Shown here one piece after another: positions 59,126 through 61,671 of a stretch of 64,000 bases of DNA. The notes below the pieces were generated by a model. The model did not search any database, was not told the DNA's origin, and saw only the letters and a list, made by a program, of their open reading frames with translations. The stretch comes from a virus. Location: positions 1-64,000 of the IMG/VR virus record IMGVR_UViG_3300032307_000723. One strand, written 5' to 3'. How positions within the stretch are numbered: position 1 is the first letter of the stretch; each line of letters begins with the position of its first letter. The position numbers and the translations under genes were made by a program.

Positions 59126-59280
59126 AAACTACTTGAGTAAGCGGGAGTGGTCAATCAACAACCCGAAGAAGGTTCAGGTAAAACTATATTTAAAAGAGGA
59201 CGGCCGAGCCTATAATAGAGTAAGTAGGAAGTTAATGTTTTTTAGGAAGATTGAGTCAGTTTTTAACATTAACGAAACAT

Positions 59281-59382
59281 AGTCAGGAGACCATTGGTTG
59301 GTATCACCTCCCCAAGGTTGAGTAACGGTAAGGCCGACTCTTTATGGCAAAGACGGAACAGGTTCGAATCCTGTCCTGACTA
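59281..59382 (+). ncRNA. Enlarged tRNA-like RNA
   Basis: 7-bp acceptor AGTCAGG/CCTGACT; T arm ACAGG-TTCGAAT-CCTGT; core about 70 nt with non-canonical anticodon arm. Confidence 0.7.
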
Positions 59383-59492
59383 CAAATTAAAAAAAAAATA
59401 ACAAAGGTATTGACTTTTGGTGATGTTAGGAGATATTTATATTCTCACGGTTCGAGAGAACCAAAACACCCCAACAAAAGTTTCATAAAAAA

Positions 59493-59524
59493 TTTGGTAG
59501 TATCAAAACTATTACTTACCTTTG
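59493..59524 (+). promoter_or_regulatory. Bacteroidota-type promoter
   Basis: TTTG(59493)-N20-TACCTTTG(59517). Confidence 0.75.
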
Positions 59525-59536
59525 TGAAACATATAT

Positions 59537-59584
59537 CCCACAGATGTATGTTCGAGAGAATTTATGTGTGTGGGTTTTTTTTTT
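59537..59584 (+). ncRNA. Small hairpin RNA/terminator with GAGA tetraloop
   Basis: CCCACA..TTC-GAGA-GAA..TGTGGG followed by a long T run. Confidence 0.5.
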
Positions 59585-59605
59585 CAAAAAAAAAGTGTTA
59601 AAGTT

Positions 59606-59637
59606 TTTGACAAATCAAAATAAATGTTTTACCTTTG
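59606..59637 (+). promoter_or_regulatory. Bacteroidota-type promoter driving the tRNA mimics
   Basis: TTTG(59606)-N20-TACCTTTG(59630); TTGACA overlaps. Confidence 0.75.
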
Positions 59638-59675
59638 TCGAAGAAATAAAGTTCATAAAAATATTGAAAGATTGG

Positions 59676-59748
59676 TGTGGGTGTCGTGTCGAGGTTTCAA
59701 ATCCCTCCGGATTTATCCGTAGCTCAGGTGGTAGAGCATACACCCACA
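59676..59748 (+). ncRNA. Circularly permuted tRNA mimic (YrlA-like topology)
   Basis: Order: variable loop, T arm, loop-closed acceptor stem, D arm; ends pair as a 9-bp stem TGTGGGTGT/ACACCCACA. Confidence 0.8.
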
Positions 59749-59759
59749 TTTTTTTATAT

Positions 59760-59834
59760 GACTACGATAGCTCAGCGGGTAGAGCAATCATTGGGAACAA
59801 TGGTGTGCCGGTGGTTCGATTCCATCTCTAGTCA
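59760..59834 (+). ncRNA. tRNA-like RNA with GNRA-capped anticodon arm
   Basis: Canonical D arm and T arm; ATCATTG-GGAA-CAATGGT; bulged C in acceptor; no encoded CCA. Confidence 0.75.
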
Positions 59835-59847
59835 CAAATAGATTACT

Positions 59848-59963
59848 CTGTGATAAGATAGCAGATAGACCTATTACAGCAGACTATCCCGACGGGAGTG
59901 CGAGTTTTAGGTAGTAAAGAATGGGTGACCTACGAATTTGTAAATCTTAAGGTCTTATCACAG
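59848..59963 (+). ncRNA. Candidate ~116-nt structured RNA
   Basis: 11-bp closing stem CTGTGATAAGA/TCTTATCACAG with internal hairpins. Confidence 0.55.
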
Positions 59964-59990
59964 ATTAAAAAAAAAAGTTTTATAGAGTTC

Positions 59991-60018
59991 TTGACAAATA
60001 GAAATTATGTGTTATACT
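59991..60018 (+). promoter_or_regulatory. Sigma70-type promoter with extended -10
   Basis: TTGACA-N16-TATACT preceded by TGn. Confidence 0.7.
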
Positions 60019-60024
60019 TATAAA

Positions 60025-60945
60025 ACAAATTAGGGAAACCTAATACGTTCTTAGAAATTTTAGATTATCCATATAGTACTTCGGTATTATAAAAACGATA
60101 ATGGGTGGTATATCATCCTTAAATAAACCGGGAAACCGGGATAAAGTGAATCTGTTGTGTTGACAGGTTTGCGGTCTCAGAAATGGGACTCGAGTATACA
60201 AGTCGGATATCACCTGACCTTCAGTATTGAGGGCAACGCTTTAGAGAAAGTGGTTGGGTGACCGGGCGATGTGGGTCGTCAGGTTGAGGAGGGAACTCCA
60301 ATAAGAATAACCGATAGGAACCAAACAAGAAATTAGGTCATCCAACTTAGTAATTGTGGGTTCCAATATCAGAGAGGACTTAAAACCGAAAGGTATGATA
60401 GAGAACGAGTGGTGTCGCTACTATCCTTACAAAACATCTACCAAGGTGTCAGTTTGAAGTAATCTTAAAATATGAGAGTGGGGACACTCTACCGAGTAGA
60501 TTAGTATTTTGTTGTTCAAAAGATAACGAAGCTTACGACAGACCTCTACTTGGACACATCCACGACACATTTAACTTATAGGATATTTTAAGTAAAACTA
60601 AAAGATACATAAGCAAAAGTGTCTGTCAGGTATCATCGACAAGGTGACTACATAGTAACGAGCCGTTCGTTGCACAGGATGACCGCAAGTCTGAATGTAT
60701 TCTTACGAAAAACCTCTAAGGAGTCGAATCCCGAGTCAGTCCGCAAGATTGAAGAGAGTTGAATAATAAGAGAGTAGATGATATCTCAAGGAGTAATTGG
60801 TCTAACCAATTGTCACTGAGAATTACCATTCAAAAGATGGTGGAAAAGAAGGGAAACTATAATCCTTCCGAAGATTCTTAATAACACGAGTATTCTCATC
60901 GTATTAGCCAAAGAGGTGTTACATTAATTTGTAACACCTTTTTTT
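60025..60945 (+). ncRNA. Large ornate ncRNA (GOLLD/ROOL-class candidate)
   Basis: About 920 nt with no ORF of 60 aa or more; at least eight GNRA/UUCG hairpins; own promoter and terminator. Confidence 0.75.
60914..60945 (+). terminator. Intrinsic terminator
   Basis: AGGTGTTACA-TTAATT-TGTAACACCT-TTTTTT. Confidence 0.85.
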
Positions 60946-60977
60946 GTTTATATGAATTTTTATATTATATTTGCATC

Positions 60978-61259
60978 ATGAGAAAAGTAAAAACAAAAGA
61001 TTCGGAAAGAATCTATACCGGACAATTTCGTAAAAAAAGAGTATTATCAATCTTTCCATTTATTATTATGGATGGAATAAAAAGTGATTTCCATTGGACC
61101 GGAAAATGGTTCCAATATGTTACGGTCAAACAACAAAAGATAAAAGACCGTTATTTGGAGTTCAATGAAGGGAATTACCAAAATTATTGGGGTAAATGGG
61201 AGACAACTTGGGTTTTTACCAAAATTATGAAAAATGAACAAGTCAATAAACATTATTAA
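60978..61259 (+). CDS. Hypothetical Trp-rich protein
   Basis: 93 aa; TATATTTG at 60966. Confidence 0.6.
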   Translation: MRKVKTKDSERIYTGQFRKKRVLSIFPFIIMDGIKSDFHWTGKWFQYVTVKQQKIKDRYLEFNEGNYQNYWGKWETTWVFTKIMKNEQVNKHY

Positions 61260-61671
61260 TAAGAAAGCCAGATTTGAATATGAATTTCTACAGACTGAGA
61301 TTTGCGGTATTCAATTGGTAGGTTCTGAGGTTAAGTCAATCCGTCAGGGAAAAGTATCCATATCTGAAGGGTATTGTTATTTCAAAGATGGTGAGTTATT
61401 CGTAAAGGGTATGAATATATCTGACTACGGGTTTGGTTCATTTCATGAGACCGTTAGGGACCGTAAGTTATTATTAAAACGAAAAGAGTTGAATGAATTG
61501 GAATCAAAACTTATCAACGGACTTACCATTGTTCCTCATAGAGTGTTTCTTAATGGTAAAGGATTGATTAAAATGGAGATTGTTCTTGCTAAAGGTAAAA
61601 AGATTCACGATAAAAGAGAAAGTATTAAATCTCGAGACATTGACCGGGATATGAAAAGAGTTCAACTATGA
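61234..61671 (+). CDS. smpB: SsrA-binding protein SmpB
   Basis: NKKARFEY..GIQLVGSEVKSIR..RDRKLLL..GLTIVP..AKGKKIHDKRE. Confidence 0.93.
   Translation: MNKSINIINKKARFEYEFLQTEICGIQLVGSEVKSIRQGKVSISEGYCYFKDGELFVKGMNISDYGFGSFHETVRDRKLLLKRKELNELESKLINGLTIVPHRVFLNGKGLIKMEIVLAKGKKIHDKRESIKSRDIDRDMKRVQL

Follow-up and report, generated by a model that had tools for sequence, protein, structure and literature searches.

Can a phage-encoded SmpB act without tmRNA, on tRNA-shaped RNAs encoded beside it? This question is raised by positions 59126–61671 of the window analyzed here, i.e., the first 64 kb of the IMG/VR record IMGVR_UViG_3300032307_000723 (117,613 bases; CheckV completeness 40%), which is a fragment of a ~300-kb freshwater jumbo phage from a lake, probably infecting Bacteroidota. 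The locus combines the giant RNA GOLLD, three tRNA-framed RNAs that lack a standard anticodon loop (t1, t3, and a permuted RNA; collectively, the mimics), and smpB. The initial annotation found no tmRNA and suggested that phage SmpB may pair with the mimics instead. We favor a different reading, which we consider likely: the locus is made of separate modules, namely GOLLD, a set of tRNA-framed RNAs that do not decode, and one half of a conventional SmpB–tmRNA pair of the phage.

Architecture of the locus

No convincing coding frame was found between the end of a 101-aa ORF (59125) and the start of a 93-aa ORF (60978), leaving ~1.85 kb of non-coding DNA in which the giant RNA, the three tRNA-shaped RNAs, and the small hairpins described initially were all located. 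The smpB gene (61234..61671, plus strand) follows this block, with the 93-aa ORF between, and is full length including the C-terminal tail. Its product matches Pfam PF01668 above the cut-off (162.6 bits) and the NCBIfam equivalogs NF003843 (159.4; cut-off 130) and TIGR00086 (156.6; cut-off 119.1), and aligns up to residue 154 of 161 in PDB 7ljp, i.e., into the tail.

The giant RNA is confirmed as GOLLD by a covariance-model match (Rfam RF02032) at 60492–60902 on the plus strand, which scores 304.8 bits against a gathering score of 150 and covers model positions 1–416 of 416. This segment is the conserved 3′ domain; it is preceded on the same strand by the variable 5′ half (~60028–60491), and both halves are conserved in relatives. 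A promoter-like site at 59991..60018 (plus strand; TTGACA, 16 nt, TG-TATACT; 11/12, sigma-70-like with an extended −10) and an intrinsic terminator at 60910–60943 (plus strand; 14 bp) delimit the GOLLD RNA to about 60028..60945. A Bacteroidota-type promoter motif, TTG-N19-TAnnTTTG, is located at 60944..60973 (plus strand), after the terminator and before the 93-aa ORF and smpB; hence, GOLLD and the smpB genes appear to form separate transcription units.

As to the promoters claimed at first, sigma-70-like matches do not stand out in number, with 11 against 9.0 ± 2.8 in shuffled sequences. The Bacteroidota-type motif, on the other hand, is enriched (8 against 2.2 ± 1.5), and two N20 versions of it, read by eye, precede small hairpin B and the permuted mimic. 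As part of the modular reading, and with the same good confidence, we regard the stretch as a non-coding RNA island of independently transcribed modules.

tmRNA in the record and in related phages

The SmpB protein query yielded 74 viral loci (L001–L074), of which ~48 belong to one phage clade with SmpB 57–89% identical; five clade records are complete or near-complete (282–322 kb, 96–100%). In the 117.6-kb record itself, tmRNA was detected neither by Rfam or ARAGORN, the latter run across the whole record as the initial annotation had advised, nor by a clade-specific nhmmer profile or blastn. The profile gives E 1e-96 on the closest complete relative (G001), but this is one of its own training sequences, so the value shows only that the profile runs. 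Several candidates were considered and discarded. A two-piece or permuted tmRNA within the block would have to escape all Rfam tmRNA families, none of which matches 58500–62000 at E ≤ 10. A permuted tmRNA called by ARAGORN at a lowered threshold (59289–59922) is regarded as noise, there being about nine other such calls across the record. A diverged tmRNA was likewise dismissed, as neither the profile nor blastn revealed a hidden copy in the record.

All five complete relatives, by contrast, contain tmRNA (RF00023; four above the Rfam cut-off, one at 45.6 bits), and they carry 13–26 ordinary tRNAs in arrays. In most relatives (loci L005, L011, L018, L030, L031, L036, and L041) the tmRNA gene is convergent and lies ~0.1–0.9 kb downstream of smpB, and in L035 (4067–5470) it is placed directly upstream of GOLLD. 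In G001, whose SmpB is 89% identical, it occupies positions 218,102–218,514, far from smpB, and the tRNA array spans 227–243 kb. Collinearity of the record with G001 is limited to positions 272,365–309,177 plus 1–81,498 of the latter; hence, both the tmRNA gene and the tRNA array of G001 fall in the 190 kb missing from our fragment. The absence of tmRNA, true of the record, thus probably does not hold as a property of the phage, and judging from these sequence comparisons it is most likely explained by truncation of the contig.

The tmRNAs of the relatives are one-piece molecules with a T-arm; acceptor nucleotides G1-G2-G3 pair with C72-C71-U70, yielding the G3:U70 pair, and the encoded tag is conserved, of the type GN(I/V)L(D/N)KM...VA. 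The tag is unusually long (21–22 aa), e.g., GNILDKMSAIGLIRAEEVVVA, and ends in VA rather than the usual AA; examples are encoded by the tmRNAs at L011:6918–7312, L041:6532–6930, and L078:1501–1913 (G001). Several of the clade tmRNA genes have no encoded CCA.

In the known structures of SmpB with the tRNA-like domain of tmRNA, the protein occupies the site taken up in a tRNA by the D-stem and the anticodon arm. In such a domain the D-stem is missing, helix 2 replaces the anticodon arm, and the acceptor contains G3:U70; none of the three mimics has these features. The corresponding acceptor pair is U3-A70 in t1 and C3-G70 in t3 (U3-A70 in relatives), and the acceptor of the permuted mimic is closed. 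Moreover, a 4-bp D-stem is present in all three, and the place of the anticodon is filled by an arm that is either closed or long.

Separability of the modules

The synteny proposed as a check was examined in related loci. GOLLD immediately precedes smpB in all examined members of the clade, and the mimics are syntenic with smpB within a subclade. Outside the clade, no GOLLD–smpB adjacency exists among the 56 GOLLD loci found by a core 24-mer, and in GenBank phages the sole GOLLD-like match, LR745206, is situated ~87 kb from the smpB gene of that phage. Two loci, L036 and L041, have GOLLD, smpB, and tmRNA but no tRNA-shaped match with either of our own family models, R1 (the permuted mimic family) and R2 (the t3/tRNA-Phe-derived family). 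Conversely, L113 (6857–8530) and L136 (4050–5846) contain GOLLD, an unrelated ORF, and a convergent tmRNA without smpB. Of the 11 smpB-less GOLLD loci scanned with Rfam, nine have no tmRNA, with ordinary tRNAs or none beside GOLLD, and model R1 finds no permuted mimic in about 40 other GOLLD loci. The DNA of smpB is only ~74–77% identical in loci whose t1 and permuted mimic show 91–99% identity. Since the modules occur apart in other loci, an obligate pairing of SmpB with the mimics is unsupported.

Structure and conservation of the tRNA-framed RNAs

The initial description of the mimics holds in that all three keep a T-arm or elbow and that CCA is not encoded by t1 or t3, both of which continue as A-CAA. 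It also holds for the anticodon: the combination of a 5-bp stem, a 7-nt loop, and U33 found in canonical decoding tRNAs occurs in none of them.

The acceptor of the 102-nt t1 RNA (59281..59382, plus strand) pairs perfectly over 7 bp (AGUCAGG/CCUGACU) and is accompanied by A73. A T-arm and a short D-arm are also present, and the rebuilt core includes a bulged arm and two additional hairpins in the variable region. A loop of 7 nt, UCCCCAA, can be drawn on the bulged arm, with C33 in place of U33. The Rfam tRNA model (RF00005) gives t1 17.4 bits against 29, and ARAGORN does not call it. Across the t1 family, the acceptor/T-arm frame is constant and the cores measure 87–114 nt. In the alignment of the 102-nt subfamily, the D-stem changes from ACCA/UGGU to UCCA/UGGA and the variable-arm hairpin from CGG/CCG to CGA/UCG; these two compensatory changes support both helices. 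The single-sequence fold z-score is not significant (−1.15).

The permuted mimic (59676..59748, plus strand) has the layout of YrlA, a tRNA-mimicking Y RNA of bacteria and phages (Chen et al., 2014, PMC4201824). Its elements follow in the order 8–9-bp outer stem, variable loop, T-arm, closed 4-bp acceptor hairpin, U8A9, and D-arm, so that there is neither an anticodon loop nor a free acceptor end, and the outer stem joins the two ends of the RNA. The Rfam YrlA model (RF02553) matches it with 38 bits (E 5e-6), under the gathering score of 69, and none of 12 related loci has a YrlA match at that score; model R1 gives 96.1 bits. The fold z-score is −3.09, and the minimum-free-energy fold agrees with the arrangement of T-arm, closed acceptor, and D-arm. 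With the structure imposed on 15 distinct homologues, pairing is seen in 91.7% of cells and five pairs are compensatory, the outer stem being 100% paired with three covarying pairs, compared to 28–61% paired in slid controls. No Ro60/TROVE gene (PF05731) was found in the record or the five complete relatives, and RtcB is absent from the record and the four complete relatives searched; a link of this RNA to Ro60 or RtcB was therefore rejected.

The third RNA, t3 (59760..59835, plus strand), is a cloverleaf that ARAGORN reports as tRNA-??? (ggaa) and that Rfam scores at 30.2 bits against 29. GGAA caps the 7-bp stem that forms its anticodon arm, its acceptor has a C-C mismatch, and the fold z-score (−1.44) is not significant; model R2 gives 41.3 bits. 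This cassette is specific to the record. The same slot in relatives is occupied by a 90–92-nt version whose D-loop carries an additional hairpin of 16 nt and whose anticodon arm consists of 5 bp, an AA bulge, a covarying closing pair (C-G in 11, U-A in three, and U-G in one), and an invariant GAAA. In these RNAs 97.3% of cells pair and seven pairs are compensatory, compared to 41–52% in slid controls. The nearest relatives are 91–96% identical on both sides of the slot and carry the long version. They also carry an additional non-coding element of ~120 nt (e.g., L203:8920–9056), situated between the t3-type RNA and a 118-nt RNA; as this element is missing from the window, the slot looks like a cassette-exchange site.

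The t3 family derives from a phage tRNA-Phe; model R2 also matches a canonical Phe(GAA) tRNA, at L137:935–1008. A wider IMG/VR scan yielded 40 distinct tRNA-Phe-like relatives with the D-loop hairpin (L155–L223, e.g., L161, L170, L195, and L210), with at least six acceptor types. GAA is kept in all 40 and A73 always, while the anticodon arms vary from 15 to 18 nt: 36 have arms of 15, 16, or 18 nt and four have the canonical 17-nt arm, and a few have a canonical 7-nt loop. An L/F-transferase, as a possible user of Phe/Leu-type mimics, was looked for and found to be absent, and this reading was discarded.

Near-complete pairing in the t3 family of relatives and the permuted mimic family (97.3 and 91.7%, with seven and five compensatory pairs), against 28–61% in slid controls, indicates that the mimics are under selection. 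With compensatory changes in each, t1, the permuted mimic, and the t3 family in relatives are real RNA families.

Proposed roles and alternative explanations

Under the modular reading, GOLLD is an independent unit with its own promoter and terminator. The tRNA-derived RNAs have kept the tRNA frame (acceptor/T-arm or elbow) and lost the standard anticodon loop; the set comprises a YrlA-like permuted mimic without a Ro60 partner, a tRNA-Phe derivative, and a family with a constant acceptor/T-arm and a variable core. They may be transcribed from promoters of their own and, because the acceptor/T-arm or elbow is kept, are probably processed by tRNA enzymes; they would then provide tRNA-binding factors with decoys or scaffolds that have the shape of a tRNA but do not decode. 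Among the roles proposed, that of a decoy or sponge for such a factor is tentatively preferred. The smpB gene would be expressed from its own promoter and serve the phage's own one-piece tmRNA, with a predicted phage-specific tag of ~21 aa, in standard trans-translation; in this sub-lineage the tmRNA gene would have moved far from smpB, outside the assembled fragment.

Several points weigh against this reading. GOLLD directly precedes smpB in all clade members examined and tmRNA is often within 1–2 kb of GOLLD, so that GOLLD may be functionally linked to trans-translation. The tmRNA of this very phage has not been seen, its presence being deduced from relatives and synteny; the t3 of the window has no close homologue and hence no comparative support of its own; and the function proposed for the mimics is one that we infer.

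The same adjacency is the starting point for viewing GOLLD, the tRNA-framed RNAs, and tmRNA–SmpB as one ribosome-acting unit, in which the mimics might be cargo of the GOLLD cage or dock to it via GNRA caps. GOLLD assembles into a 14-mer nanocage, as determined by cryo-EM (Kretsch et al., 2025, PMC12286853); the same paper proposes tRNA cargo and, among the work it cites, mentions a ribosome pull-down of GOLLD. Further, tmRNA is found within 1–2 kb of GOLLD in three different arrangements, and GNRA loops cap several of the RNAs, namely t3 (GGAA), the t3 family (GAAA), and both small hairpins of the island (GAGA). Nevertheless, we consider such a unit unlikely. GOLLD has its own promoter and terminator, most other GOLLD loci lack smpB and nine of the 11 scanned lack tmRNA, the permuted mimic is missing from about 40 of them, and synteny within a single clade may reflect inheritance only. 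An extended version, in which these components form one ribosome-directed takeover device, with the mimics docked to or caged by GOLLD, the tmRNA re-tagging stalled host products with a phage peptide, and some mimics perhaps still being substrates of PheRS, given that they retain GAA and A73, seems to us distinctly unlikely. The original idea, that SmpB without tmRNA carries an anticodon-less mimic into the ribosomal A site or otherwise partners the mimics, would, if true, constitute a new mode of ribosome rescue. It draws on the lack of tmRNA in the record and the synteny of mimics and smpB within the subclade. We regard it as very improbable and most likely an artifact of the truncated contig: the record is only 40% complete, every complete relative has tmRNA, with that of the closest one lying in the region missing here, the mimics have no G3:U70 and fill the site that SmpB takes up on the tRNA-like domain with a D-stem and a full arm, and L036 and L041 have smpB, GOLLD, and tmRNA without mimics.

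Two further explanations concern the mimics themselves. Given the derivation from a phage tRNA-Phe, the match of R2 to a Phe(GAA) tRNA, and the retention of A73 and, in all 40 relatives with the D-loop hairpin, of GAA, four of them having a canonical 17-nt arm, t3 and its relatives could be working tRNA-Phe variants, acting as quadruplet or frameshift decoders or, through their altered anticodon loops, evading anticodon nucleases of the host. This is doubtful, as the arm deviates from 17 nt in the other 36, C replaces U33 in most clade members, the closing pair of the GAAA loop covaries, and t3 of the window combines a 7-bp stem and a GGAA tetraloop with an acceptor mismatch. Decay of the tRNA-like sequences into functionless pseudogenes would account for the low score and mismatched acceptor of t3, its lack of a close homologue, and the non-significant fold z-scores of t1 and t3; it is quite improbable, since t1 and the permuted mimic are far better conserved than smpB DNA, compensatory changes occur in all three families, and conserved promoter motifs are located ahead of the tRNA-like sequences.

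The locus represents a well-defined phage clade in which the cage-forming GOLLD and the phage's genes for trans-translation are neighbors. Several conserved tRNA derivatives that do not decode share the island with them, including one that is YrlA-like in layout but without Ro60, and the island supplies testable candidates for interaction partners of GOLLD and of phage tRNA mimics.

Other features of the island and its surroundings

A conserved non-coding leader (59126..59280, plus strand; 80–99% identity in relatives) precedes t1. Its first ~57 nt (59126–59182), just 3′ of the 101-aa ORF, are near-invariant in 14 related loci, exceeding the neighboring genes in conservation; no Rfam family matches this segment, for which a stem is possible. 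Small hairpin A (59449..59462, plus strand; GGUUC-GAGA-GAACC, with a GNRA cap and a fold z-score of −3.52) has a promoter-like site at 59410–59437. Small hairpin B (59537..59584, plus strand; z-score −4.48) has the same cap, UUC-GAGA-GAA, followed by a terminator-like U10, and is preceded by TTG-N20-TACCTTTG. Among the smpB-anchored loci L001–L074, both hairpins are conserved only in the four closest, L001–L004. A 118-nt structured RNA (59847..59964, plus strand) with a 12–13-bp closing helix and a z-score of −3.47 shows 94–98% identity to its counterparts in relatives; Rfam gave no match for it at E ≤ 10.

The variable 93-aa ORF (orf93; 60978..61259, plus strand) has no family match and is present in few relatives only; Pfam, NCBIfam, and PHROGs returned nothing informative for the small flanking ORFs (93, 101, and 172 aa). 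Just 5′ of the island, at 56625–58807, are a DHH-family phosphoesterase-like ORF (a weak match, under the Pfam cut-off) and a NUDIX hydrolase. Further upstream, two tandem genes at 43430–47504 (688 and 671 aa) encode collagen triple-helix repeats and a C-terminal Peptidase_S74 chaperone domain, and are probably tail fibers. Outside the window, ~15 kb downstream, a 245-aa ORF encodes a nucleotidyltransferase of the CCA-adding type (PolyA_pol head domain at 76686–77105), which fits the tRNA-type genes without encoded CCA; an ORF of this type was also found in G001.

Comparison with known systems

GOLLD beside tRNA genes, phage SmpB with tmRNA, and YrlA are already published. GOLLD loci adjoin tRNA genes in phages and prophages (Weinberg et al., as summarized in PMC5737381), and the locus described here resembles them in its full conserved 3′ domain and variable 5′ half, phage context, own transcription unit, and tRNA-type genes directly upstream. 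It differs in that these neighbors are non-decoding tRNA derivatives instead of ordinary tRNAs, joined in relatives by tmRNA, whereas the real tRNA array, as seen in relatives, is placed elsewhere in the genome.

Phage-borne SmpB and tmRNA have been published for huge phages (Al-Shayeb et al., 2020, PMC7162821), and tmRNA is known in mycobacteriophages and phage G (PMC4131195); we found SmpB homologues in Lak and other huge-phage records. As in these systems, a full-length SmpB equivalog is encoded by a jumbo phage whose relatives have one-piece tmRNA with G3:U70. In contrast, the tmRNA tag of this clade is long, ends in VA, and is clade-conserved; moreover, the sub-lineage has no linkage between the genes for tmRNA and SmpB, and the former is off the fragment. 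In mycobacteriophage DS6A, titration of SmpB has been proposed as the role of a tmRNA reduced to the tRNA-like domain (PMC4131195, citing Mao et al., 2009). Like this RNA, the mimics are phage-borne, tRNA-like, and devoid of a coding part, and have been considered as ligands of SmpB; unlike it, they are not tmRNA-derived, have no G3:U70, and keep the D-stem and an arm at the anticodon position.

The permuted mimic and YrlA have in common a T-arm, a closed acceptor-like hairpin, and a D-arm, set on a stem formed by the two ends of the RNA. However, the permuted mimic scores below the YrlA gathering threshold, has no visible GNCGAA motif and no long Ro-binding stem, has an acceptor hairpin of only 3–5 bp, and is found in genomes where neither Ro60/TROVE nor RtcB was detected. 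By analogy, it may work like the tRNA module of YrlA while lying outside the YrlA family. This Ro60-less permuted mimic, the Phe-derived family, and the constant-frame family appear to represent new forms of tRNA mimicry.

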